Assembly: GCA_051362555.1 (NCBI GenBank)
Contig: CM120641.1
Span: 11,656,001 to 11,720,000 of the forward strand
DNA: 64,000 nt
Direction: 5' to 3'
From: Lingula anatina
Taxonomy: Eukaryota; Animalia; Brachiopoda
Shown here one piece after another: positions 1-63,839 of the stretch. A model generated the notes under the pieces. The model made no database searches and was not told the origin of the DNA. It saw only the letters and a program-made list of their open reading frames with translations. How positions within the stretch are numbered: position 1 is the stretch's first letter; the number at the start of each line of letters is the position of its first letter. The position numbers were made by a program, and so were the translations under genes.

Positions 1-999
1 AACATAAAACTCAGGTACAACTGTACAGTGCCAGACTGATATGAGCTAGATATATTTATAAATAGAACAACCCCGGGAATCAGATTTTTCTACCTGGACT
101 CTTTCTGCACTTCTAGAGCTTTTGACCTCTGAAACTTGCTTCTTTTTCACATACAGCATACACAGGCCCTATACAAAGGTTTTTATCATGTGTGTGTGTG
201 TGAGCTTGAGCACATGTGCCTACATATGTCTAAGAGAGAAAGAGAAAATAATGGCCAAAGAAGTAAAATTAATCAAATATACATAACTACAGGTCATCTC
301 ATTAATTGAAATATAAATTAATTTTCAAAGACAAATACATTGTAGAATTTCTGAAATTGATATAAAATAGATTGTTCTTATTGTGCTAATAGCTCTTGTG
401 TGCATTCTGCAACCATAGCAACTGTAGGAGAAAAAACTAATAATAGGCATAATCACCTCACATTCAGTTAATTTGTAAAAAAATGTTTTTCGGAATTTCC
501 TTGTGTGAAAATTAAAAATATAATATGCATAATATGCATAAGCAAAAATACTAATTGTAAATTAATTGCAGAGAAATCTAATTCAAACTGACATACTACA
601 CCATAGGATAAGAGATAGTTTTAATGTAAAATATCATCACCTGGAAAACAATTACAGATAGTGATATTCAGAGATATAAGATATTGGTTATAATATTTTG
701 ATAAATCCTGCATGAGAACTCTTATAAAAACATAAAACATTTTTCTTTTAATATTGGATATATCACTGTGCCGTTAACTAGTATGTTTAATCACTGAAAA
801 CGTGCTAGTACACTGTAGAAAGATTGCATTAGAAATGAATGAACAAACTGGATGTACGAGTATTCAGTTATCCGTGATCCAGTCTATATAGTGAAAAATA
901 ATACGAGTCAGTTCAAAATGGACACGCTCCAGCTAAATTTAAAGCATCCTGTAAAAGATTAGAGCAGCTTAGTTCAGTTTTTCCTGTTTATTCGCTTAC

Positions 1000-1332
1000 C
1001 AGTATTCTCCCAGTCATCGTTTGACCAGAAATCAGCTCGCCGGCCCAATCTTTGGCCTCCGAGACCCATCCTATCTCTGTCTCCGTCGAATTTTTGCCGA
1101 GAAGATGTTTCTGTGGACTGCTCTTGGAGTCCAGCTGTGCATTCTGTCTCCGTGCACAGAGTATTACCCCGACCCTCCACAACAGAACGATGATAAAACA
1201 TGTTATAAAACTGAGGATACTGGACAGCAGGAATACATAGTACAGCCGATCTTTACACTCCAACAATTCGGGAGCGCTGGTGGTGGATAGGGTTAGCACT
1301 GTTGTTGTTGATATATTCGTTTCATTAGACAT
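1000..1332 (-). CDS. KCNMA1: Calcium-activated BK/Slo1 potassium channel alpha subunit, first coding exon (gene continues beyond the left edge)
   Basis: Translation has an S0 TM helix followed by GWVSEAKDWAGELISGQTMTGRIL, the Slo1 S0-S1 signature; GTAAGC donor starts at 999. Confidence 0.9.
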
Positions 1333-1984
1333 GTCTAAAAACAATGTGGACTTCCAATTGGTATAATTCCATCAGCATGGCGTGGTCTTCGTCAATCCGA
1401 GAATTCTGATCTCCTTCTTGTTACAACTACGATCCTTCTGTTTACGTAGTTTCAAATGACCTGTGTGCCTTAGAGAATATGAATATTCATGACTGCTTTA
1501 ACATTAGCAACCATCACCGCTAACTAGCACAGTGTCATATTAGGATGACTTAGACCAGCTAAAATTAGACTCTGTGCCACGCACTGTCCCCATTCGATCT
1601 GCTCTGTAAGATCATTTAATAATATTTTGAGATGCAAAACAATATTATTAGAAATCAAATAATGAAGCACTATCGCCACCTATCAGTAACTACATTAAGC
1701 ATGTGCTCTTCAGATTGGTCCCTTAAATCAGGTTAAAAGTGGTGACAACTACGCACATTTTTTTGTAAGGTAAGTAATATAAAATTAAAGCAGAACTATA
1801 AAATAATTTGATATTTATTATGAAGGACTATAAATAAAATAGGATATTTTGAAAAACAATTGTGTTTCAAAGGTTGTGCCGGCACGAAACAAATGAGGAA
1901 TCAGTCACGTAAAACATTTCGGGAAAGGTGAAACTGAAGAAGGACAGGTAACAACACCAGCATAGAGCTTGGAACAAGATAATA

Positions 1985-16800: not shown

Positions 16801-18934
16801 TAAATGAAAGACGGTTGGTTGGATAGAGTCCGTCTTTCTTTTTATGTACAGACACAGATGTGTCTGTACATATAGCCATCATCTGCGTCTGTCGTCGTCG
16901 CCGTGCACTTTCACCGATAACACGATAAGTGAAGAACCGTTTTATCTTTTGGCTTGAAACCTGCAGAACTGATGAATATTCATAATACGCAGGTCGAGTT
17001 CGAAAATCAGCATGATTGGGTCATTTTTAGGGAAGTTATGCTGTTTTTTCACTTTTTTCAGCATATATGCAGCACCGATAACACAATAAGTGGAAAATCA
17101 TTTTACTTTTTGGCTTGAAACTTACAAAACTGATGAATATTCATAATTAGCAGGTCAAGTTTGAAAATCAGCATGATTGGGCCATTTTTAGGGGAGTTAC
17201 GCAGTTTTTTCACTTTTTTCAGCATATATGCAGCACCGATAACATGATAAGTGGAAAACCATTTTACCTTTTGGCTTGAAACTTGCAGAACTGATGAATA
17301 TTCATATTACGCAGGTTAAGTTTGAAAATCAGCATGATCAGGTCATTTTTAGAGAAGTAATGCTGTTTTTTCACTTTTTTCAGCATGTATGCAACACCTT
17401 GTGCTATATGATGGTACTGTATGGATGTCAGTCTATAAAATTGTCCCTTGGGTGATCACTAATTAAATTAAGGTCTATAAAGTCACTTGCCTACTCATTA
17501 ATTTTCAATTGGCCATTAAATGAGATTACATAAAACACTCGTTGAGATTTCCCTGTAAAGTCCCGTAGGTTTAGCTCTCTTAACTGTGTCACATTTAATT
17601 AGGATATGGTGATAATTATGCAGATAAATGGTGTTTAATATTGCAAATAAATTTACAACAAAAAATGTGTTATGCCAACATGCTATAGATGAATAACAGT
17701 GCCTTATTTTTCTCAAACTTGGTGGGGTTATTCATATCAAGTTAATACAGCTAGATTAAAAGTTTGAATAGCAGCTTTATTGGAATTTTTTACATGTTAT
17801 TTAAAAAAAAAATTTAAATTATTTTTCAAACACCAGCATCTTCAAAATGTGATTTTTAACTCCCATCCACCAGAAGTGCTGTGCATTTTCTTTGTTTCCA
17901 CATGAGCAATTGTATTGGTTTTTTTATGTCTTTAAACATTATGTAATATTATTTTATACACTGTTATCATTGTTCACATATTGTGATTTCCATTATGTGA
18001 ATTTGAACTCTTGTGGTCTTGAAACTGTAATCTTATTGCAGGGGCTGAATGAGACTGTCTTCTGGGCCTTCTGGGAGATAGTCAGATTTTAATGTTTACA
18101 TTGACGGGTATCTATTTTTTCTGTTGGAATACCATCAAAAATGGAGGATGGATCAACAAAGATAATTTGGAATACTGTCAGAAAATATCTCTCCTGTTCA
18201 CTCCTGTTATTGACCATGTTATCTGTTGTTCATGATTAAAATTCAGTGTTGATTGACAGTATTATTTATTATTGCATCAAAATTGACAAAATGACCTATT
18301 TTTTACATATTTATTCAAATATTGAGACTTTCATCATGTGAATTTGAAGTTTCATGGTCCTGAAACTGTAATCTTATTGAAGGGGTGGATTGAGACCATC
18401 TTCTGGGTCTTCCGGAAGTCAGTCAGGTTATTAAGTTTAAATTGACTGGTATCTATTTTTTTTCTGTTGGAAGACCATCAAAATGGAGGATTGATCAAAA
18501 AAGATACTTTCGAATACTGTCAGAAAATATCTCTGGGTCCGCTCCTGTTATTGACATGTTACCTGTTGTGCATGATTAAAATTCAGTGTTGACTGACAGT
18601 GCTATTATAAGCATTATTTGTCATTGCATCAAAATTGAGAAAATTACTTTTTTTGCATCTTTATTTTCTGTTTTTTGTCTGTACATTTGACAGCTTTGCT
18701 GCCTTGTTTCAATAAATATGTGTATTTAGAACTTTATACCCTATATTGTGCCAACCGTAAAAATAACAATTGTATCGTAATTGCTTTTATTGTTGTAATG
18801 TAGTTCCAGGCAGTGCATGGGGAGTTTGGCAGCTGATCTGCGTTGCATGCGCCCCAGTGGAAATTGTACAAATCGTAATAAATCTGAGCATGCTTCACAC
18901 TGCAAGTTTCCGTATGGCTGCCATTGACACATAG
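13815..18934 (+). CDS. CDIPT: CDP-diacylglycerol--inositol 3-phosphatidyltransferase (PI synthase)-like, divergent; exons 13815-13854, 14063-14197, 14356-14509, 16159-16240, 16544-16625, 18804-18934
   Basis: VFFFVPNIIGYLRI N-terminus, CDP-alcohol phosphotransferase motif DMVDGHFAR..FGSLLDMLIDRC, LDISSHW, SHK and MAAID C-terminus. Six exons join in frame; intron 1 uses a GC donor. Confidence 0.85.
16838..18709 (+). mobile_element. Helentron-associated non-autonomous element (HINE/DINE-like) with internal tandem repeats of about 152 bp, in CDIPT intron 5
   Basis: 5' palindrome atgtacagacacagatgtgtctgtacat, (GTC)n tract, tandem core repeats at about 16910-17400, 3' subterminal tgtctgtacat plus hairpin cagctttgctg. 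Same family recurs at 57-62 kb. Confidence 0.75.
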
Positions 18935-19510: not shown

Positions 19511-20718
19511 TTATTTCCCTACAATGGCAGGCTGTCGACAGTCACCTTAAAAGAATAAAGAGCATAACAGTGTATTTTGAAAAAGTCAAACCATCACAGG
19601 CTTTAGCGCAAATCCTGACGCATGTCAAAATAATAATACATTGAAACTTATCAATGGTGTTTTGGAAATTTTCCATCACTTGAGAATGACATTACTTTGA
19701 GAAACCAAAACAGAATATTTAAACTTCAATATTGCTTACTTCCAACATTCAGTACGAAACTGGAATCTTTCTTAAACAGATCAGAACCGTCCAACTTATT
19801 GATTTGCAAACGGTATCCTCTATGGCGTATAAAGTACCCAGGAAAATTGACAGACTCGTATGCAGTGTACTCAGGAAACCATTTATTTTCTCGTACGAAA
19901 AATGTTGAGTCCTGAGCAAAGATGTGCGAATTTCTCGGTCGGCTTGAGTGCTCCAGGTGTAATTTATATCCGTAGTGACGTAAAAAGTATCCCGGATGGT
20001 CGTAGGATTCAAAGGAAATGGTGTTTGGTTGCTCTGTGAGACCCGGGGTGATGATGCGGAAAAGTCGCTGGCCGAGCTCCGTCATGATGTAGGCCTCGCC
20101 TTTGACATCATAGCCCCACGTGTACGCTGGGTAGTTTTGTGATCTGATGTAGTATACTGAGAGAGTATATGAATAATAGAGAATTAATATCATGTATTAA
20201 ATATATAGAATTAGCTACATACTGCACAATGAGCGCCTAACCATACAGACAACGTTTTTTAATACAGACCAAGTATTTAGAGTGCATTTTTCATTTGAAG
20301 AACATTTGGAGGGGACATTCCTTGAAAAGGCGTTTGATCAATAGCCTACTTTCCTCTAAAAGGCCCATTATCTCAAAACACTGTATGCATATATGCTTTT
20401 TTAAGGTTTGTTTTGGAGTTCGACCATATTTCTTATTAAGCCGTTATTACCATAGACAGCGGTCTTGCATTTCGGGGTTTTAATTACAACTAATCCTATT
20501 AAAATGTTATAAACACACGATATGCGTTTCTATTAAATAATTAAATAAATAAATAAATAAATAAATTAGTTAGCTTGCCTTGAGTTTTCGGTCAGTCCAC
20601 TGACTACCCCTGGCTATGCCAGAGTGAGTGGAATTCACGATGAACAGCTTAACTTACCTTGTCCATGTGCCATGGAGACACACAAGAGCAAAGCAAAGTA
20701 CCACGGCACTTGCGGCAT
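19511..20718 (-). CDS. Secreted stand-alone AbfB/CBM42 (arabinofuranosidase-B carbohydrate-binding) domain protein, copy 1, 170 aa; exons 20718-20658, 20156-19740, 19545-19511
   Basis: Signal peptide exon MPQVPWYFALLLCVSMAHGQ; repeated SFESYDHPGYFLRH / AYESVNFPGYFIRH and F..DSTF motifs typical of AbfB; last exon DCRQPAIVGK*. Phase-1 introns join in frame. Confidence 0.85.
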
Positions 20719-21593: not shown

Positions 21594-22829
21594 TTATTTT
21601 CCAACAATGCCAGGCTGTGGCAGGTCGCCTTAAAAGAAAAAAGATAAAAAGTGTATTTTGAAAAAAAAAGGAACTACCAAAGATTTTAGCGCAAACCTTG
21701 ACGTATGTCAAGTGAATAGTTTTTTTAAAATGTACACCCCATTATCACCATTAAACGTTGCTTTTGGCAATTTTTCATCACCCGAGAAAGGTACATGTAT
21801 GCCATGTCTTGAGAAATCAATATTGCTTATTTAGGAAGATACTACAGGTTTAAGAAACTTCACTATAACTTACTCCCAGTAGTCAGTATGAAGCTGGAAT
21901 CCTTCTTAAACAGATCAGAACCGTCCGACTTATCGATTCGCAGACGGGACGAACTGTGGCGGATAAAGGACCCAGGATAATTGACAGATTCGTATGCAGC
22001 GTACTCTGGAAACCATTTATTTTCCCGTACGAAAAATGTCGCGTCTTGAGCAAAGATGTGCGAATTTCTCGGTTGGCTAGAATGCTCTAGGTGTAATTCA
22101 CCCCCATAGTGACGTAAAAAATAGCCCGGTTTGTCGTAGGATTCGAAGGAAATGGTGCCCGGTTGTTCTGTGAGACCCGGGGTGATGATACGAAAAAGAC
22201 GCTGGTCGAGCCCCGTCATGATGTAAGCCTCGCCTTTGACATCATAGCCCCAAGAAGAGGCTGGGTAGTTTTGTGATCTGATATAGTATACTGAGAAAGA
22301 ACGTGAAAAATACAGAATTAATATCATTATCAAAGATATGGATCGAATTCGTTTCATAATGCACAATTTACAAAGTGTACCCAATCATACAGACCTAGTT
22401 TTTACAGTGTACATGTATATTTTTACTGAAGAACATTTAGAGCGGCGTTTCAATGCCAACTATTGCTATTACAGGGCCGTAGCCTCCGGGGGGGCAGGGG
22501 GGGCAGCTGCCGCCCCTGGAATTTGGAATTTTACACACCACACCCTCCCCCCTCGGTAGCTTCGCCCCCTCGTGTCCGCTTACTGCCCCCCCTGGCATTT
22601 TGCTCAGGCTACGGCCCTGTATTAAATGTTTTAAACATAGGATATGCATTTTAATTAAATGAAAACATTCTAGTCTGTCCTTTGTGGTTTCAGCTAGACC
22701 ACTGACTACCTCTCAGCGATGCAAGAGAGAGTGCATACACGATGAATAGCTTTACTTACCTTTATCCGCTTGTCCGAGCGTCATGGAAACGCACATGAAC
22801 AAAACAAAGTACCACGGTGTTTGGAACAT
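21594..22829 (-). CDS. Secreted stand-alone AbfB/CBM42 domain protein, copy 2, 173 aa; exons 22829-22760, 22290-21874, 21628-21594
   Basis: Tandem paralog with the same exon structure: MFQTPWYFVLFMCVSMTLGQADK signal exon, 417-nt domain exon, DLPQPGIVGK* last exon. Confidence 0.85.
22472..22619. mobile_element. MITE in intron 1 of AbfB copy 2, 5-bp TSD TATTA
   Basis: TIR cagggccgtagcc / ggctacggccctg; not seen in the copy 1 intron. Confidence 0.75.
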
Positions 22830-24168: not shown

Positions 24169-24908
24169 CTGACAAGCCTTTCAAATTATTTTTCTTTTGA
24201 ACTTTTTTGGATTACGAGCAAATGAAGTCAATTTGTGACCCTACTGTCTTGACATAAACCATCACTGATAAGCGAATACTTACCAAAGCCTTGGTTATCA
24301 ATTATCTGCATTTCTAGAGATAAAACCCAATGAAGAAGTTATATGTTTAGACTACTACACGTAATATCTGGTCTTATGTACAGATAGTACTTCGTCTTCG
24401 ATAGCTACAGAGTAAGACCAGGTCAAGTTGTTTGATAACTTACTTATGATGAACTTGCTCACATTCAAGGGGAAGGGTGTTATGTGATTGAATATTACAT
24501 TTAAGTGATGTTTTTTTATGGATCCAAATTGTCGATGATGAAAAAAATGTTCATATGTCTTCGCATCGACAAATTGCAGGCATTTACACCGTCGGGAATA
24601 AGAATTTCAGAATTTTATTTTTTATTTGCATAATGACGGTTACATTCTCCAGAAGTATGCTTTAGATATAAGATGCTGTCCCATATATCTTTACTGATTA
24701 AAGACCATTAATTATTTGCTTAGTACAGACAACATCATTTGTCTATCAAGAAATGGAGACAGTCGACGCACTTGATCATAGGCTTGGGCCTGATCGCATG
24801 ACACACAAGGATTGTAACCTCAACGAGACGGACGAACTTTGATGTGATATCTTTTGACAAACTAAGGATTCATCCATCTCGAGGAGGGCGACCGTCTGTC
24901 TGGTAGAA

Positions 24909-27900
24909 ATGGCGCTGAAAAAATGGTGGATGGACCACAAACACGACATGAGGCTGGTCATCACAATAGAACCCGCCACGTTTCTCTATATATTGTCTCT
25001 GTACTGTTCCTGGCCCGCAGCCCAGGCTCTTTACATCGAGAAAGTGTGCATGGGCAAATACAAATCAGAAGAAATTTGTAGCAATCTAACGTTTCACGAC
25101 GTGGAGAGAGACTACGTCCAAACCGAGAGCTCACGCTGGTTCTTTTACAGCATTTGCCTAGAAACATTCCCGTCAATGATTGCAGCATCTTTCATGGGAT
25201 CTTGGGGCGATCAAATAAATCGTAAAATACCTATAGTCATCCCGATTATTGGTCTACTGATAATGCACTCTAATTTTCTTTTGAACTCGATATTCATTGA
25301 CTGGCATCCCGCTTTCGTTTTGATAAGCTATTTCTCCTCGGGTATTCTTGGGGGCATTGCGACGTTTTTGCTCTCAGCCTACAGCTACGTGGCCGTCGTG
25401 TCAAAGGGGAACAAAGAGCGCTTGGTTCGAATCAGCGTCACCGAAGGTGTCCTGCAACTGGCCGGAGCAATAGGGTTAGGCATCTCTGGTCTGCTTGTGG
25501 AAAACTTTGGGTTTCCTGCTACCTTCGGAGTCTCCACTTCTTCCGCCGCGGTGGCTCTAATTTACACATTGTTGTGGATAAAGAATCCAATTTCCACAGA
25601 AAGCAAGGAGCAGGAGGCGATGTCAAAACAAGAACGAAATCTCTGTGCAAGATTGTTCGATTGCAACCATTTCATTGACTCCATGAAATGTTTCTTTGTT
25701 AAAAGAGAGGAATATCGCAGACTTATATTATGGCTGTCTCTGATAACTTTAATTCTGACAAATTTAACAATTGGAGGTAAGTGGATGACTTACGGAGAAA
25801 ACCAAGGTCTCATCGTGGACATACCAGAGTACACGTTTTTCTGTCAGAATCATAAGTATAAGTTCAGAACGATAATCTTTAAAAACAATGATCTTTTAAA
25901 AAATTGGTTACAATATATCCCCTGTCTGTTTTCTTCTCGTGGAAATGAATAGGTGGGCGTTTGGAGTGTAAAACATACTTGTTGCTCCATGACTTCTTTT
26001 TTTGTTTCAGCTGCAATGACTCTTACTCTATTATTTCTGCGATATGTGGTCCCAGGCTGGAACTTGACCCTGTACGGTATCTATGCTGCCTTGAAGAACG
26101 TCATGATGATGATAGCCCTGTTCCTTTTCATGCCTGTCGTGAAAAAGCTGGCCCTGGATGACACCACTGTGGCCATCGTGGGCCACGTAAGCGCCATTCT
26201 TGGAGTGGTGTTGCTGGCTTTCAGTCGATTTATCTGGATGGCTATGTTAGGTAGGTGAGCCGTTAAGGAAGGCATGCAAGTATTTTTATTTCAGTTTATT
26301 CATGTAACTTGTGGTATAAATTATTGAAATTAATATTATTTATATTTTTCATTCGAAGCCACGCATTGAAACCTGATGATACAAAATACTGAAAAACTCG
26401 TGTTAAGAAATCTGTCAATATATTTCAGTGCCTTTTGCGAACATGCTGTCGGCGTTTAGCAGCACAGCGCTCAGGGCAGTTGTAGCAAGAATGGTTGGAA
26501 AACACGAACAAGGCGAGTCTCTCTCTTTCTCTTTCTCACTCTGTCTTGAGAGACTTGAGAGCTCACACATCAAGAATCAAAATGAGAGGAGACATTTTTT
26601 TTTTGGCTTCAACTTCCTAAATTCAATTTTTTAAAATAAAATTTGAAATTTGTGAACATTTTTCAGGAGAACATGAAAAAGTGCCTTTTCTTTCCTGAAA
26701 TGTCGGGGCCCAAACCAGCCACTTTATTTTGGAATGTGGTTGAGGAGACTCTGGAGCCCTGGGTCAACATGACCCAGTACATGCGTGAAAGTATAACGGT
26801 TTAACACTTAATGATGATATATTGATATAGCTACTGATACCATTCTTTGATTAATCGGCGATTAATGAACTATGCAGTCCGTTTTTTTTTCACAGGCAAA
26901 GCGTTTGCATTCGTTGGAAGCGCCCAGTCTCTGAGCGTCCTCTTGTCAAGCGTCATCTTTAATAACTTGTATCCAGAGACGCTGCATTTCTTCCCCGGGT
27001 TAAGTTATCTGCTATGTGCAGTACTTCTCCTAGTGGCCATAGTACTAACAATGTAAGTACATTGTATGTTTTAAACTTATATTTTGAAAACCTGGAATGG
27101 TGACTGACTTATTCGTTTTTTTATCCGTTGCTTGATACTAGTAATTTCTTTCTGCTATTATTATTATTATTTTGTTTGTTTGTTTGTTTTATGAATAACA
27201 TTTGCTGGTTGTTTATTATCCTGGACGTGTTAATATTAAGACAATTTATACAATTTTTATGCCTCAGAATCATTCGGTTCCGTATGCCCAAACCAGAAGT
27301 AAACGATACAATGAATAGCACTGCAACGCTAGACAAATCAGGTAACTGATACATGCATGCTTACTTTTTATTTATTGTCGTATATGCTATATGCACGTTT
27401 ATGTTTATCACACCGTTTATCTGTACCAGTATTTGAAAAACTGTTTTTTTTTTAAAGTCGTTGAGTTATATGTATTTCTTTTATCTTTAAAGAAAGGGGA
27501 AATTGTCCAGTTCACACTTCATTTAATTTTCGGTTTGTGTCCTAATAGGCCTATAATAACGGAATAACGGTGAATGAATCTAAAAGCCCCATAAAACGGC
27601 CTTAGCGTACCATATTTATCTTCTAGACACTATTAGTGAACAAAGAGATAAATTCACTATATATATATATATCTACTGACATTTCCCTGGCTAATTATGT
27701 GAATATTTCTGGCCATCTACAACAATGACACAGCATGGACGTCATCACTCAGGGGGCCTCTGGTGGGGCGTCTGGAGAGTACTTATCTACCATTAAAACT
27801 CTGTTTAGTATCTTAATGATTTTTTAATCGTTAAATGTTGTTTTTAGACTTTAAATGTTGTTTTCCTGAACCTACTGTACCTACCACGGTTTTCTATGTC

Positions 27901-39505: not shown

Positions 39506-39545
<40 letters not shown>

Positions 39546-40195
39546 TAGGAAACTTAAGACTTGTAACTGCTCTCGCGCCTTGTCACTCCCTCCGCATTTG
39601 GTTCCTACGTATACAGTATAATGTGCTTACTCGGAATTTGCAGGCAAAACGGCATAACCGACCAGGATGTTTTTTCCTATCAAATTTATTATTATTTAAA
39701 AAAATGTTTAACAACGCATTGTTAAATCTTGGTCTCCTTTTCATATTCATGTTTTTTTTAAACATATTTCCGGAAGTAGGCCTATATCCTACATGTAGGG
39801 CCTACATGTAGATCCACCGCTGATCAATATTGCAGTGCGCTGCTGTGCTTACACGGTGGTAAAAAATCGGATTGAAATCTATGGACACCCCAACAGCTTA
39901 TTAATGTCATCGTCTTTTAATAAAAAAAATCTCGCAGTCGGCTTTCGTCGAGTTGGAGATTACAATTTTTGAAATACGGTATTTGCCGTAACTTATCGGT
40001 CAAAACAGGGTTTCGCAATGCATTTTATAGTATAGGCCTACAGTAATTGACTTTGACAGAGGACGATATGTTGTTTTGCAGACCTTAGAAAAGTGACATT
40101 GACCGAGGCGCAGAAAAAGTTGATATCAGTTTTCAGCAACTTTTCTGACATAAAAGAAACATTGATCTTAAGCAAACGTCTTTATATGCTAGCTG

Positions 40196-40239
<44 letters not shown>

Positions 40240-40917
40240 CATTGGTCAAAATGGTTGTCAAGTGCTCGAGAGTTTGGATTCTTGATCCTGTTAAAGGTTT
40301 TAGGTTTCTTGCTTCCACTATAATTCTTAACCATTTGACATTGCAAATGCCAAGTATGACCACATGTCAACGGGTGTGGCAGCTACAAAGTAAATGTAAA
40401 CATGTTGGTATTTGGGATATAAAAACATGTTACTAACTTTGGCTGTAGCGGGGGGAAACCCCGCGTAGGTGTACTGTAAGCTGGTGACAAACCTCGTCAC
40501 TAGCAATATAATCAAAATTGCTTTGGAAAATCCCAGTGTCACATGACACGGCAGATGGCTGGAAAAGCCTTGTGTACTTCTACAGTGTAGCTTTCACATC
40601 TAGTTGTTAACTATCATAAGCATATTGTATAAGGAAATGGACTAGACTGTAGACAATGGAAAATACACACACGTTTTGTACTAGTAGGCCCCCCACTATA
40701 TCATGTAGAATTTCTGTTTATTTGAGAATAACATAATTCTGTTAATATGTGTATTTTCCTGGTAACGAATGACTTTTTACAGCACTATAGCTAGTTACTC
40801 GATTTTAAATATTATAAAAACCCATTTCACTAGATAAAACATCGCATATATCTCATCGTATTTTTGTGAGTACGTTACAACTGAATGAGCTCAGATGGTG
40901 GAAAGATACACAATTTC

Positions 40918-42874
40918 TTAAATGCTGCTAAGGTATTTGTGAACCAGGACATCAAAATCTTGCTGGCTCGGTATTTCCTTCTCAAGGGCTTTGGCAGTAC
41001 GTTGCAATAACTCGGTTATCTCAGTCCCCCTGTCACTAGCCACTATGGCAGCAGCCTCAACAAGGCCCCAGATATCAAAAGGCAAAAACACCAGTGGAAT
41101 GATTCCACCGACAGAATCTAAAACATTTCTCGGGACCTGGATACCTATTGCCCGTAAAAACAGATCGAGCAAATCTTCCCCGCCTGACGTGGCAACTGAA
41201 CGTCCAGTTTTGGTAATTGACCGAGTGCTCACTGCGGTCAGTTCCCCAGCCAGTTTCTGTGCTGTGATGATTGGTTTATACAAGAGATTAGAACCCACAA
41301 GGAATCCAATTTTACCCGCGTGGTGCATTGTAGATAATATTATACCTTTTCTGGGGACGTTGTGCATCTTGAATTGCTGTTTGATTTTCATAAGATCCTG
41401 TCTGCCTATGTGTTTTATAGTCTCAAACAGAATCAATATGTCACGTAATGCATTGTGATCTTTTTGTAAAACTTCATTGGCCTCCGCTTGCGCTGATGCT
41501 GAGAGAACAGAGCGAGCGATGGTGCTGCCACTCACAGTTATCCCACCACCTGCTCCTAATGCGGAACTGGCCGCTAATAAAATGAGAGACAACCCCGAGG
41601 TAAAGAATGAAGCGGCAAACCCTGCAGCGCCGAGTACTGCGGCAAATATTGAAGTGGAATGACCCGTGATTGTGGCGACACTAATGCTTTGATTGTGAAG
41701 GTGCAAATCGTCTGAGATGTCTCGTAGTTTTTGTATTGTAGCTGTCCTGCACGCTTTCCAAACACCGAACGTAAAATGTAGTCTTTCTACGAAGGAAGCT
41801 GGATTGGCAATGCACCTATAAATGTAAACGGGTTTGATCAGTCACATTCAGTGAACAAATGTATTCGCAGATTACCTTTCAGCAATTGTTTTTCTTCGGC
41901 GTAAATTATGTTGGATTGATATTTTTTCAGAGGTATGACGCACGTACGTCTAAGTCAGAAGTAAATTGTTTTAACTTGAGCTTATTGCAATATCCTTTTC
42001 GATCTTTCAATGAATCTTGAGGATATTACATGCAGTATCGTTCTCTTGTCACACCAAGCTGATGCAGGAGAATTCAGTCAAGTGTTTTGTGGGTTGTTTA
42101 CAAAAGTGCACTTTGCGTCCAATTCTCTACTAGCAGTGTATCTCACTCAAAATAATTAGAATCCCACTGACGTAGTTTATAACAATATGTGTTAATAAGC
42201 ATTCATGATAAATGTCAGATAGCTCAATGGACACGATACAATCCAAACAGCTAGGTTTACTTACAGTGTACTTACATCAAGCGTTCTCTTACGCAGAGAC
42301 GCACGCTCCACCAACCGAGATTCCTACGCGGATTCTCGCTGACTGTCATATCAACTGCGAAGGGACAGTCACCACTGGCTGCTATGGGATTCACGTTGCA
42401 ATTTTCGTCCGTTTGGCGACGGTACTCCAAAGCATTATCCTCTCTAAACACTTCTCTTGCACGAATTTGGCCATTTGGGTCTATTATTTCTACGACATAG
42501 AATGCATTTTTCTTGTAATAGGCGGCACATAATTGCAGACGAAAAACCCAACCGGGATGACCATCGTGTGAAGCACTCTGCACAGCAGTACTAGTGCTTT
42601 CATTCTCCATCTGTAACGATCTGTTCTCCGCTGCGTTGCTTTGGTACTGCTGAACGGCATATTGAATATTTCTTACATGTGCCCCATAGCTTGCATCTTG
42701 ACAACCATGACTTTCTATGGCCTGTTGGACTACTGTGCCTGGCAGTATGGAGGCAGTAACAGTAGGTGACACGCCTGTTCTGCGGTCGATAGTATGAGAA
42801 TCGCGTAAATGCAGTTCGTGTGGCGTTTCATTTTCGATTTCTACAGTAAATCCTGAAGTATGTCCAAGACCCAT
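40918..42874 (-). CDS. Myristoylation motif + actinoporin-like beta-domain + apolipoprotein-L fusion protein, copy A, 498 aa; exons 42874-42276 and 41815-40918
   Basis: Exon 1 ends TTG AT|GTAAGT and the acceptor tttacatttatag|G gives an in-frame ATG with no stops. Exon 2 has APOL motifs (IQKLRDISDDL..VATITG..FFTSGLSL..LGAGGG; VFLPFDIWGLV..TEITELLQRTAKALE). Confidence 0.8.
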
Positions 42875-42949
42875 TTCTCATCAGTCGTGCTCAGGTTTCC
42901 AAACACCATCCCGACTAAATCTAACTTAAACGTGGGTCGCGTATTCAGA

Positions 42950-43240
42950 TCTTTATATACTGTCACCAAAAATACCAGATTAGGTAGAAGTAAAGTGAAA
43001 TTATCCTACAAATCTTAGTAATTTATTGTGACTCGATAGAGAAGCTGATGACACGCCGCTTCTCACAAAGCGAGGCAAATTACACCTACGCAGGTTTTTC
43101 CCACAGAATCATACAATGGGGAAAACAGCTATATTGCGACACACACCTGGTTACGTTGGAAATAGCGATCAGCTTTGTTCTGGCATAAATTTGGAAAATC
43201 CCAGTGTCACATTACATGGCAGATGTCTGGAAAAACCAGT
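42950..43240 (-). promoter_or_regulatory. Promoter of APOL-fusion copy A: TATA box, IRF-like element, kB-like sites
   Basis: TATATAAAG on the minus strand at about 42951-42959; GAAGTAAAGTGAAA at 42987-43000; GGGATTTTCC at 43193-43202 (minus); further GGAAAAAC-type sites. Confidence 0.6.
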
Positions 43241-43353
43241 TTCTAGGAGCTTAAATAACAGTAAAGATTGCGCCGTGCTTGTCTCATAATCATGGTTATG
43301 GAGACTGTGAGATAAATCATTTCCAGTAGAAAGTAAGTGATCGACCTGTGAGT

Positions 43354-43384
<31 letters not shown>

Positions 43385-45502
43385 GACGGGGGGGGGGGTA
43401 TATACAATGAAGGTCGTTCCATTGTTATGTACAGGCACAGGTGTCTCTGTATATATCGTCGCTGTGATATTTTTGTTGTAACTCAGAACGCTAACGCACT
43501 GCTTACGTGCATAGGCCTACACACTGACTTTATTTCACGACACGTGGATACTTAATAGTAGGCATACACGTCGTGATCACATGCCACACATGAATATTTA
43601 TGAGGATACTATACAGTCACCTGCGTCTGTCGTCACCGGTGCCGTGCACTTTCATTGAGAGAGAGAGATAGAGAGAGAGGTGGGGTACCGTAGGAAATTT
43701 ATGTCTTGTTGTAACTGCTCTCGTGCCTTGTCTCTCTCTCCGCATTTGGTTCCAATATGTGCTTACTCGGAGTTTGCAGGCAAATTTTGAATGTTTTTTT
43801 TTTTTTTTTTTTTTACAAATCAATGTTAAATCTTTGTCTCCTTTTCATATTCATGTTTTTTCACATATTTCCGGACGTAGGCCTATGTCCTACATGTTGT
43901 ATCGAGACACACGTACCTGGTTACCATGGAGATGGGAAACCCCAGTGTCCCAATCGCAGTGCGCTGAGCTGTGCTTACACAGTGGTAAAAAAAATCGGAT
44001 TAAAGTATATGTACATTCCGATAGCTTGTTAATGGCATCTTCTTTTAATCAATGGTCTCGCAGTCGGCTTTCGTCGAGTTGGAGATTACAATGTTTGAAA
44101 TACATTGTTTGCCGTAACTTAACGGTCAAAACAGGATTTCGAACGCAATGCATTTTATAGTATACAATAATTGACTTTGATGAGGACGATAAGTTGTTTT
44201 GCAGACCCTAGAAAAGTGACCTTAGAAAAACTTGACATCACTTTCCAGCGATTTTTTTATATTAAAAAAACATTGATCGGAAGCAAACGTCTTTATACAC
44301 TAAGGCTGTCTGTAATTTTTTATTAGACATTGGTAACGTTGGTCAAAATGGTTGTCAAATGCTCGAGAGTTTGGATTCTTGATCTTGTTAAAGGTTTTAG
44401 GTTTCTTGCTTCCACTATAATTCTATTACCATTTGACATTGCATATGCCAAGTACATGTATGAGCACATGTCAACGGGTGTGGCGGCTACAAAGCAAATG
44501 CAAACATACTGGTATTCGGGGTATAAAAACATGTTACTGATTTTAGCTGTAGCTCGGGAAAAACCCGCGTAGGTGTAAGCTGGTGACAAACCACGTCACT
44601 AGCAATCAAAATCGCTTTGGAAAATCCCAGTGTCACATGACACGACAGATGGCTGGAAAACCCCCGTTTCTTTAATATAGCATTTTACGATTCTTGATCA
44701 GGGTTGACAGGTGTAAAAAATGCAAGAAAAATACGTTGTCTTGGAATCAATTATAGTATCAATTTATGCTTACTATCCCAAGTATCATGATGTATTGTGT
44801 TTATTAACCAGGAAATGTATACAATGGTATAAAAAAGATTATATTTAAATCTGAACTGCACACTTCTTATTCTTCAAATGTAGAGAAATAAAACCATGCG
44901 CACATTATGTTATTAAGTTTTCTTTGAAGTATATCCATTTAATACCATTTTATGTAACAAGTCCTTTAATTTTCTTATATATTCTGGACCATCGATAAAT
45001 ATGTAAGTGCAGAAGTGATCAAATGCGTATTAAAAAAAAAAGAAGTCCATAAACGCATTATTTAATTTGTGTTGACATTTAGAAGCAATAATGCATGTTT
45101 ATTTTGTCAAATGCTACAGGTATCAGTCAATACACATAATTCAAAGGGTGATAATTCTTTTTACAGTTTCACATTTTGAAATCTTTGTTAATTTAAGATT
45201 TATGTTATTCTCAAATAAACAGAAATTCTACATGATATACTAGTACAAAACATGTATGTGTATTTTCCATTGTCTACAGTCTAGTCCATTTCCGTATACA
45301 ATATATTTATGATACTTAAATAACACAAGGCCTACCTAAATACCCGGTAGCTGGTACCAGCTTTTTACAGCACTATAGCTAGTCACTCGATTATAAATAT
45401 TATAAAAACCAATTTCACTAGATAAAACATTGCATATATCATCGCATTTCTGTGAGTACGTTACAACTGAATGAGCTCTGATGGGGGGAAAGATATAATG
45501 TC

Positions 45503-47592
45503 CTAAATGCTGCTAAGGTACTTGTGAACCAGGACATCAAAATCTTGCTGGCTCGGTATTTCCTTCTCAAGGGCTTTGGCAGTACGTTGCAACAACTCGG
45601 TTATCTCAGTCCCCCTGTCACAAGCCACTATGGCTGCTGCTTCAACAAGGGCCCAGATATCAAAAGGCAAAAACACCAGTGGAATGATTCCACCGGCAGA
45701 ATCTAAAACATTTCTCGGGACCTGGATACCTATTGCCCGTAAAAACAGTTCGAGCAAATCTTCCCCGCCTGATGTGGCCACTGAACGTCCAGTTTTGGTA
45801 ATTGACCGAGTGCTCACTGCGGTCAGTTCCCCAGCCAGTTTCTGTGCTGTGATGATTGGTTTATACAAGAGATTAGAACCCACAAGGAATCCAATTTTAC
45901 CCGCGTGGTGCATTGTAGATAATATTATACCTTTTCTGGGGACGTTGTGCATCTTGAATTGCTGTTTGATTTTCATAAGATCCTGTCTGCCTATGTGTTT
46001 TATAGTCTCAAACAGAATCAATATGTCACGTAATGCATTGTGATCTTTTTGTAAAACTTCATTGGCCTCCGCTTGCGCTGATGCTGAGAGAACAGAGCGA
46101 GCGATGGTGCTGCCACTCACAGTTATCCCGCCACCTGCTCCTAATGCGGAACTGGCCGCTAATAAAATGAGAGACAACCCCGAGGTAAAGAATGAAGCGG
46201 CAAACCCTGCAGCGCCGAGTACTGCGGCAAATATTGAAGTGGAATGACCCGTGATTGTGGCGACACTAATGCTTTGATTATGAAGGTGCAAATCTTCGGA
46301 GATTTCTCGTAGTTTTCGTACTGTAGCTGTCCTGCACGCTTTCCAAACACTGAACGTAAAATGTAGTCTTTCGACGAAGGAAGCTGCGTTGGCAGTGCAC
46401 CTATAAATGTAAACGGGTTTGACCAGTCGCATTCAAAGTACAATTGTATTCGCGGCAATCATTTTTCTTCACGTCTCATCCTGATTTAAAATTGTTTTAT
46501 CATAAGCTCATTGCAAGAACCTTTTTCGGTCTTTCAATGAGTCTTGAAGATTTTACATGTAGCCTAGTTCTCTTGTCAAACCAGGGGCGTCGCGATAGTC
46601 CGAAGGTTCATTGGTCCGAAAAATAGTAAAATTTTCATCAGTGTTGTAATCAAGGGTTCATTGGTCCGAAGGTTCTATATAGTGAAAGTTCTAGAGTGAA
46701 CATTCGGACCCATGAACCTTCGGACTATTGTTACGGCCCCGTCACACCAACCTGGTCCAGGAGAAAAAAAGTTGAGTGTTTTGTGGGTTATTTACAAAAA
46801 TTCACTATGCGTCCAACTCGATCTCTGCTACATGTAGTAGGGTATATTAGAATCGCACTGACGTATGTTATAACGATTTCTATAAATAAGCATTCATGGT
46901 AAATGTCAGATAGTCCAATGAACACGTTACAATCCAAACAGCCAAGTATACTTACAGCGTACTTACATCAAGCGTTCTCTAAAGCATAGACGTACGCTCC
47001 ACCAACCGAGATTCCTACGCGGATTCTCGCTGACTGTCATATCAACTGCGAAGGGACAGTCACCACTGGCTGCAATGGGATTCACGGTGCAATTTTCTTC
47101 TTCTTTGCGACGATGTTTCAAAGCTTTTTCCTCTCTGAACACTTCTCTTGCACGAACTTTCCCACCTTGGTCTGTTATTTCCACGACGTAGAATGCATTT
47201 TTCTTGTAATAGGCGGCACACAATTCTAGACGAAAAGCCCAACCGGAATGACCATCATGTGAAGCACTCTGCACAGCATTACTAGTGCTTTCACTCTCCA
47301 TCTGTAACGATTTGTTCTCTGCTGTGGTGCTTTGGTACTGCTGGACGATGTATTGAATTTTTTCCACATGTGTCCCAAAGCTTGCATCTCGACGTCCATG
47401 ACTTTCTATGGCTTGTTGGACTACTGTGCCGGGCAGTATGGAGGCAGTAAGCTTAGATAGCACACCTCTTACTTGTCTTATTTGTTTTTTTGTTTTTTCT
47501 TTATCAGAAGGATCTGGTTGGTATAAATGCAATTCGTGTGGCGTTTCATTTTCAATTTCTACAGTAAATCCTGAAGTATGTCCAAGACCCAT
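45503..47592 (-). CDS. Myristoylation motif + actinoporin-like beta-domain + apolipoprotein-L fusion protein, copy B, 507 aa; exons 47592-46967 and 46400-45503
   Basis: Same phase-2 intron with conserved donor and acceptor; 626+898 nt open frame. Confidence 0.8.
46583..46740. mobile_element. Mutator-type MITE in the intron of APOL-fusion copy B
   Basis: TIRs gggg..atagtccgaagg / ccttcggactat..gcccc; imperfect 9-bp TSD gtcaaacca/gtcacacca. The empty site gtcacacca is present once in copy A. Confidence 0.8.
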
Positions 47593-47664
47593 TTTTCTTC
47601 AGTCTTGCTCAGGTCTCCAATCACAAGCCCGACAAAATCTAACTTGAACGTGGTTCGCGCATTC

Positions 47665-48000
47665 GGATTTTTATATACTGCCACAAAAAGACCAGATTAG
47701 GTAAACGTAAAGTGAAATTATCCTAAAGATCTAAGTAGTTTATTGTTACTCGATGGAAAAGCCGATGACACGCCGCTTCTCACAAAGCGAGGCAAATTGC
47801 CCCTACGCGGGTTTTTCCCACAGAGTCATACATTTGGGGGGGGGGGGGGGCGTACACTGTACATTTAGGTGTAATATGAGACAGAGTCTGTATTGCGACA
47901 TACACCTGAATAGGACGGAAATAGCGATCCGCTTTGTGCTGGCCTAAATTTGGAAAATCCCAGTGTCACATTTCATGGCAGAAGTCCGGAAAAACCCCGT
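47665..48000 (-). promoter_or_regulatory. Promoter of APOL-fusion copy B: TATA box, IRF-like element, three kB-like sites
   Basis: TATATAAAA on the minus strand at about 47669-47677; GTAAAGTGAAA at 47707-47717; GGGAAAAACCC at 47809-47819, GGGATTTTCC at 47952-47961 and GGGGTTTTTCC at 47988-47998 (all minus). Confidence 0.6.
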
Positions 48001-48706
48001 TTCTAGGAACAGTAAAGATCGCGCCCTGCTTGTCTTATAATCTGTCGCATTGTACGTATATCAGGTGCATATAAAGTTTTTTTTAAAAAAAAGAAAGAAA
48101 TGGAAAGCCCAGGTTTATGGAGACTCTGTGGGACCATTCCCAGACCCGTACTAACTGTAGATCGTTCTATCTCCGAGGGGATTCTCGCTCCCTTATAACT
48201 CCTTGGTCATGCTACATGTATCATATCACTACTTAAGGCTCGGTCACAACCGGACGCATGAATTTTAGGATCGCACGTCCCCCACGAATTTTGGGTACAT
48301 GGGAGACCGTTGAGTTCGTAGAGGTAGTAGTTTAAATGGAAAGGCGCAAGTCTTGACAGCATTTAAATGAAATTATTAGAAAGTAAATAATTCACCAGTT
48401 TTATCTTTTTTTTTTTTTTTTTTTTTTTTTTGCAATGGTAAACACCTTGCAATTTTCAACAAGGGCAGATATATTGCTTTAACTTTCCATTATTACATAT
48501 TTTCTGTTTTCCAAATGTAAAGAGATATAAGTAGCCAATCTGGATAAACCAAGTTCTACCTACCTACTGATCACAATTTTGGTTGTTGCCCAGGTAAAAA
48601 TGTTTGAATTCATTTTGATACATCAATAGTAAAATTGGTTGAATATGTGGAAATACATAAGACTTTGCAACCAAGATTTTATATCATATTTTAAATGATC
48701 AGTAAC

Positions 48707-51414: not shown

Positions 51415-51674
51415 AGAAGCATGTATCAATTAGTGATTAACTAAATAAATGAATTCAGCCAAATCATCATTTGCAAGAGTTCTGCTATGATTTCATTTAA
51501 TTATTATCAGTACTTTATTTCGATATAATCCATTATATATTAATGGGAATCCACAAATGAAAAAAGAGTAGAAAATACTATAATGAGTAGAGATGACAAC
51601 AGCAAGCCTTTTTGGAAGCTTTATGAATTTTTAATTCTTTTTCAAATAGGTGGTGCTTATACTAGATCCTCGTG

Positions 51675-63839
<12,165 letters not shown>

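Follow-up and report, generated by a model that had tools for sequence, protein, structure and literature searches.

Duplicated Lingula anatina genes pair a predicted aegerolysin-like domain with apolipoprotein L, with a likely splice choice between fused and free forms

A 64,000-nucleotide (nt) stretch of the brachiopod Lingula anatina genome (GCA_051362555.1, contig CM120641.1, positions 11,656,001 to 11,720,000; hereafter, the window) carries two neighboring two-exon gene copies, A and B, on the minus strand, in which a first exon of about 200 codons precedes an apolipoprotein L (ApoL) exon. In copy A, the coding part of exon 1 (42874–42276, 599 nt, 199 codons plus 2 nt; frame, ESM, profile, and reads) encodes the aegerolysin-like predicted beta-sandwich and is followed by an intron (42275–41816; sequence and reads) and by exon 2 with the ApoL domain (41815–40918; Pfam and hydropathy). 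In copy B, the corresponding parts are exon 1 (47592–46967, 626 nt, 208 codons plus 2 nt; frame, profile, and reads), which starts with MGLGHTS and encodes the same predicted domain with insertions, the intron (46966–46401; sequence and reads), and exon 2 up to the stop (46400–45503; frame and Pfam). Both first exons end in phase 2 at a GTAAGT donor, and the GT..AG introns (460 nt in A, 566 nt in B) are phase 2, with TTTATAG at their 3′ ends. Exon 2 has a length of 898 nt, and the joined frames are open without internal stops, giving 498 amino acids (aa) for copy A and 507 aa for copy B. Self-BLAST showed a tandem duplication across 39516–48042 (~39516–43291 versus ~43657–48042), with a duplicated unit of ~4 kb. 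The coordinates, phase-2 joint, and protein lengths of the initial annotation were reproduced exactly on recomputation, and its two intact tandem copies were confirmed by the open frames and the self-BLAST duplication. The copy B intron also contains a high-copy palindromic repeat (46584–46730).

Exon 2 passed the gathering score of Pfam ApoL (PF05461) in both copies, as had been expected of it, with 44.8 bits for copy A and 41.0 bits for copy B against a cut-off of 25.9. XP_013413780.1 (P0001), a Lingula anatina "uncharacterized protein" with only ApoL annotated, scored 34.9 bits; it is 99% identical to copy A in exon 1 and uses the same joint. The Pfam match spans exon-2 residues 16/24–126 (~41745–41437 in copy A), with 103 of the 298 profile positions aligned, and hydropathy peaks lie at residues 53–95 and 231–260. 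When the whole protein was searched, the best three Atlas clusters shown were plain ApoL proteins of 187–290 aa (score 0.76–0.77). Homologues of the ApoL part among 4635 candidates were two Lingula proteins only, a search that barely sampled the range beyond Lingula. The first in-frame Met of exon 2 is codon 142, which follows the Pfam stretch, and translation of the ApoL part from an AUG therefore requires fusion to exon 1 through the donor termed D1 below.

Both copies start with MGLGHTS directly after an in-frame stop, and P0001 shares MGLGHT. No upstream joint was listed, and the first 23 codons differ only synonymously between the copies. The start contains M-G-x-x-x-S/T, which we take to be the N-myristoylation consensus, and Gly2 may thus be modified. 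Because exon 1 lacks a hydrophobic stretch (highest 19-residue Kyte–Doolittle mean, 0.99), no signal peptide is apparent; together with the upstream stop, this hydropathy maximum upholds the MGLGHTS start without signal peptide that had been claimed. The bacterial aegerolysins P0003–P0010 likewise start with MG, and the MG start of the Lingula gene may, judging from this, be due to chance. Copy A has two out-of-frame ATGs (42875–42910), 35 and 7 nt before the start and the first in good context, that copy B lacks; they may lower translation of copy A.

The predicted fold of exon 1 very probably places it in the aegerolysin/actinoporin superfamily. With ESM features, the best three of 30 matches were aegerolysin-type clusters (0.91–0.92, with 194–197 of 256 features in common), of whose members 14–28% are Pfam aegerolysins; actinoporin (rank 5, 0.91), Nakanori, and fungal lectin clusters came after them. 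In the ESM Atlas structure search with P0001, the best row was a 128-aa protein from a cluster in which aegerolysins make up 20% of the members (TM 0.76 for that row, 124 residues aligned), and it covered query residues 2–199, which are exactly exon 1. An aegerolysin profile, built from eight bacterial sequences and checked against RahU, PlyA, and OlyA6, ranked the exon-1 frames first and second among the 42 open reading frames (ORFs) of the window; one of 2000 shuffles scored as high as copy B, and 18 of 2000 scored as high as copy A, the weaker of the two. Of the 10 rows for the reference set, 8 are true aegerolysins, a check that is circular for exon 1. After the proline turn, exon 1 carries a G-R-x-x-x-S-G-T strand-turn motif, which is also found in the RahU and AfIP-1A alignments, and copy B aligned over profile positions 40–79.

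Exon 1 had been described as actinoporin-like without the pore helix. The superfamily beta-sandwich is retained as a prediction, and the N-terminal amphipathic pore helix of actinoporins is indeed absent, with only 6–8 residues before the first predicted strand in both low-confidence AlphaFold models and in the aegerolysin alignment. Aegerolysins, however, fit slightly better than actinoporins in ESM features, ESM structure, and motif, and exon 1 is predicted to be a little nearer to them, the feature margin being small (0.92 versus 0.91). Several results weigh against this assignment. ESM recognition for exon 1 was 1766, below the tool mark of 2300; the ESM structure row was below the tool's bar for family naming; and both Atlas searches, by features and by structure, depend on one model family. 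Alignment of exon 1 with the aegerolysin set by hhalign gave a probability of 3% (E 0.013). Exon 1 and its parts reached no Pfam or NCBIfam cut-off, including those of PF06355 and PF06369, and the best Pfam match, MspA, was below cut-off. The AlphaFold models of exon 1, from 2 and 10 input sequences, were unreliable (pLDDT 34 and 37), and fold searches with Foldseek and VIA gave no match. Exon 1 is classed neither as a Pfam aegerolysin nor as an actinoporin. The matches to MspA, 2B4, and a phage tail-tip protein were rejected as below cut-off or compositional. P0001 was the only exon-1 homologue found (1 of 316 candidates; 1 among 1.84 billion representatives); there was none among 88 pattern matches in prokaryote genomes, 553 in metagenomes, or the solved structures, and two plasmid matches were at chance level.

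Of the nine RNA runs listed, seven were aligned to assess transcription, with 6–30% of each run's reads sampled. Exons 1 and 2 were covered and the intron was nearly bare in four of the seven runs (X6–X9), and the stranded run X6 placed the transcripts on the minus strand. Runs X1, X2, and X4 gave no exon coverage in the 6% of reads sampled. Run X6 held 64 reads matching copy A at 99% or more, together with loose ends matching copy B's own stretches and a third exon-1 sequence type. Both copies are expressed.

Each copy has a second GTAAGT, D2, 11 nt downstream of D1, which the initial annotation had overlooked, and each of these donors matches U1 at 7–8 of 11 positions. In copy A (42275–42259), D1 is at 42275–42270, with a TAA at 42274–42272, and D2 is at 42264–42259; in copy B (46966–46950), D1 is at 46966–46961, with a TAA at 46965–46963, and D2 is at 46955–46950. 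The D1 joint removes this stop and gives the 498/507-aa fusion, whereas the D2 joint keeps it and would give a free domain of 200 aa (A) or 209 aa (B). Joints with fewer than three reads were not listed, and the sole main joint listed was D2, with 555 nt skipped in copy B (3 reads) or, in the coordinates of copy A, 449 nt (4 reads with 4 starts); both counts come from the same run, X7, and are not independent. Three X6 reads, of the third sequence type, also kept the stop, with another joint spacing.

The D1 joint was sought by fitting 150-nt reads to read depths. In the X9 minus column, D1 appeared in 13 of 13 solutions and D2 in none, probably from one fragment, and of the 34 donor places tested there, two fit: D1 and one without GT. 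Both columns of X7, plus and minus, and the minus column of X8 each needed one non-D2 joint, compatible with D1 and not pinned to it. The NCBI model XP_013413780.1 also uses the D1 joint. On the strength of the depth fitting and the NCBI model, both mRNAs, fusion and free domain, likely exist, in a ratio that the few reads do not fix. Three points weigh against the fusion mRNA: no D1 joint was listed directly in the sampled reads; one of the five depth columns, X8 plus, was unfittable, and the D1 count amounts to few reads; and the reads for D1 and those for D2 may stem from separate alleles or paralogs, because the P3 reads are mostly 90–99% alike. At the proposed junctions 42276–41815 and 46967–46400, the reads confirm transcription of both exons, and depth and the NCBI model argue for D1, whereas the listed joint is D2. 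The spliced fusion of the initial annotation stands as a real two-exon gene but not as its sole mRNA, since the form listed directly keeps the stop. Two further ways of reaching the ApoL frame on the D2 mRNA, read-through of the stop and a fixed frameshift, were rejected, as the ApoL frame is offset, no AUG lies upstream of the joint, and the third X6 form has another offset.

The D2 mRNA would carry ~900 nt of idle ApoL frame as its 3′ untranslated region, an arrangement that would fit an alternative we regard as unlikely, namely that the fusion is the sole working product, that D2 splicing is a brake or noise discarding transcripts of a dangerous protein, and that the free domain is inert. 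The third X6 joint form, with its different spacing and retained stop, agrees with this in that it shows no conservation of frame beyond the stop, and the intron starts of A and B are identical at 52 of 60 positions, so that retention of D2 needs no selection. However, stop codons close to a splice joint escape junction-dependent decay, and the D2 stop, 7 nt before the joint, is inside that zone. It also coincides with the end of the complete predicted fold (residues 2–199), and free aegerolysins are the normal form of that family (PMC9505663).

At the protein level, the copies are 79% identical in exon 1 and 96% identical in exon 2. Of the 17 coding variants shown for exon 2, 10 were synonymous (p 0.005), as were 9 of the 19 shown for exon 1 (p 0.026), compared with ~25% expected; dN/dS between the copies was 0.28 and 0.40. 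This pattern indicates that the ApoL frame is under purifying selection. Two points count on the other side: 245 variants were found, of which the 40 best supported were shown (36 coding); and P0001 ends at residue 431, without the second hydrophobic stretch, as an allele or through assembly error. Reads of four runs contained no coding indel at a share of at least 20%, and the full-length form therefore stands despite the end of P0001 at residue 431. Within exon 2, codons 41–200 (41215–41694 versus 45800–46279) differ between A and B by one synonymous base, and the flanks diverge far more; this near identity reflects either recent gene conversion or assembly collapse.

The database proteins also bear on whether the two exons work together at all. 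A Lingula protein on another contig (P0002, 73% identical) consists of ApoL alone and begins with a Met at the position of a Thr in the window copies. A young chimeric gene of unsettled joint function, in which a free-standing exon 1 came to lie in front of an ApoL exon and the fusion through D1 is a by-product, would account for this protein, for the lack of exon-1 homologues outside Lingula among the 1.84 billion representatives, for a listed joint that keeps the stop, and for one truncated database allele. We consider such an origin very improbable, since the ApoL frame is open and under purifying selection although these copies offer it no usable AUG, and no indel disrupts it at the share given above.

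The flanks of the two copies are enriched in matches to the kB consensus that we assume for NF-kB-type sites. The window contains 10 matches compared with 3.0 expected, none of 100 shuffles reached 10, and nine lie within 40453–47961. They belong largely to a ~60-nt module that has an invariant core of 21 nt and flanks each copy on both its upstream and its downstream side. On the minus strand, the module carries the consensus GGGATTTTCC 328 nt upstream of the copy A start (43193–43202) and again 369 nt upstream of the copy B start (47952–47961); it recurs between the copies with two consensus sites (44619–44664) and downstream of copy A, together with one further kB site (40453–40534). The duplication, and the counting of two sites on both strands, make these matches interdependent and weaken the enrichment; ~4–5 sites are independent. 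A TATA-like box is located 85 nt upstream of the copy A start (42954–42959, minus) and at 47677–47672 in copy B; reads extend upstream of it, and the start site is not fixed. A kB match does not prove induction, and NF-kB control of the gene is a prediction.

Whether this duplicated and transcribed gene, with its predicted aegerolysin-type domain, its ApoL domain, and its likely choice between fusion and free domain, serves a probably infection-induced intracellular membrane attack appears to us evenly balanced. The NF-kB-type sites would switch the gene on. Splicing at D1 would then give the 498/507-aa fusion, as read depth and the NCBI model suggest, and the D2 joint seen in reads would give the free 200/209-aa domain. 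A myristate on Gly2 and the beta-sandwich would choose a membrane by its lipids, by analogy with aegerolysins, and the ApoL helices would permeabilize it, as APOL3 does with cardiolipin-rich membranes, which it disrupts in a detergent-like manner (10.1101/2025.05.16.654477). Such a protein would place the A-plus-B plan of aegerolysin toxins in one chain, with ApoL as the B part, and the free A isoform could label membranes, assemble together with the fusion, or dampen its action. A more specific proposal, which we hold only tentatively, is a one-gene, two-component pore toxin, in which an aegerolysin-type lipid sensor is joined to an ApoL membrane-breaker, the 11-nt splice choice sets the ratio of free to fused form, and NF-kB controls expression. 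If true, this would be the first aegerolysin–ApoL pairing, and it would suggest that a dedicated lipid-reading domain can direct ApoL proteins to their targets.

The missing signal peptide and the myristoylation motif would also suit a protein whose targets are membranes of the animal itself instead of microbes, in damaged lysosomes, in mitochondria, in lipid traffic, or in regulated cell death. Human APOL3 permeabilizes mitochondrial inner membranes too, after lysosome damage (10.1101/2025.05.16.654477), and the membranes that aegerolysins are known to target are the sphingolipid/sterol ones of eukaryotes (PMC9505663). However, the kB sites suggest defense either way, and aegerolysins can be released without a signal peptide (PMC9505663); we judge action on own membranes to be improbable.

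Intracellular members of the ApoL family (PF05461; human APOL1 and APOL3, mollusc and nematode clusters) lack a signal peptide, as does the Lingula fusion, and the family shares its hydrophobic hairpin and C-terminal hydrophobic stretch; the fusion differs in having a separate N-terminal targeting-type domain. Compared with actinoporins and actinoporin-like proteins (PF06369; mytiporins, coluporins), exon 1 has the same predicted fold superfamily (feature score 0.91), and an aromatic pair presumably lies in a loop equivalent to the actinoporin loop, whereas its first strand begins at residue ~7–9 with no amphipathic helix and no Pfam match. The two-component aegerolysin toxins (PlyA/PlyB, OlyA6/PlyB, Cry34/Cry35, and AfIP-1A/1B; PF06355) likewise have a small beta-sandwich that lacks both a signal peptide and a long pore helix and is coupled to a larger membrane-active part from a gene alongside, and bacterial aegerolysins have the strand-turn motif region and predicted fold in common with exon 1. 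By contrast, a single Lingula gene holds A and B as separate exons that can be joined into one chain, ApoL serves as the B part, and exon 1, with 200 aa and insertions of ~70 aa, misses the Pfam cut-off.

Aegerolysins are lipid selective and recruit a larger pore-making partner, often encoded next door, and the five partner groups listed in section 4 do not include ApoL (PMC9505663); the animal aegerolysins named in literature passages are from insects. Actinoporin-like genes have been reported in Lingula (PMC6231492 and PMC8778704, both citing Gerdol 2018). In 27 mytiporins, the porin domain is C-terminal without an added domain (PMC9645577, section 5), whereas the Lingula domain is N-terminal to ApoL. 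A full-text search, whose scope was literature outside subscription journals, supplements, and Gerdol 2018, found no paper pairing apolipoprotein L with actinoporin or aegerolysin, and for Lingula and apolipoprotein L it returned unrelated papers only. The architecture is thus undescribed within that scope, as the initial annotation had supposed; its survey across metazoans is answered in part, exon 1 with ApoL having been found only in Lingula and the range of the ApoL part being barely sampled.

The gene is real and unites two known membrane-attack modules in a so far undescribed way, with a likely splice choice; it is known from one genus, and its function is predicted by analogy. It touches on how ApoL proteins pick the membranes they damage and on the role of those animal aegerolysin/actinoporin-like proteins that lack a pore helix, and a natural fusion offers a direct test of both. 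It is also a candidate effector for lophotrochozoan cell-autonomous immunity and would represent a compact way of switching, by splicing, between the binding domain alone and its armed form, a weight limited by its presence in one genus so far.

Elsewhere in the window, a tandem pair of short ORFs (19726–20196 and 21863–22384, minus) has a hydrophobic start and an AbfB beta-trefoil sugar-binding domain (90 bits each), with a weak IL-1 match below cut-off; these are candidate secreted lectins. One passage of PMC13736523 names two Lingula IL-1 models and does not name AbfB. A major facilitator superfamily (MFS) transporter gene occupies 24858–26258 on the plus strand, and a long Gln/His-rich secreted-type ORF without a Pfam match occupies 51666–54644, also plus. 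An exon at 988–1371 (minus), without a Pfam match, presumably resembles the N terminus of a BK potassium channel. Nested direct and inverted copies of a ~160-nt repeat family are found at 57200–62300 and 16830–17400.

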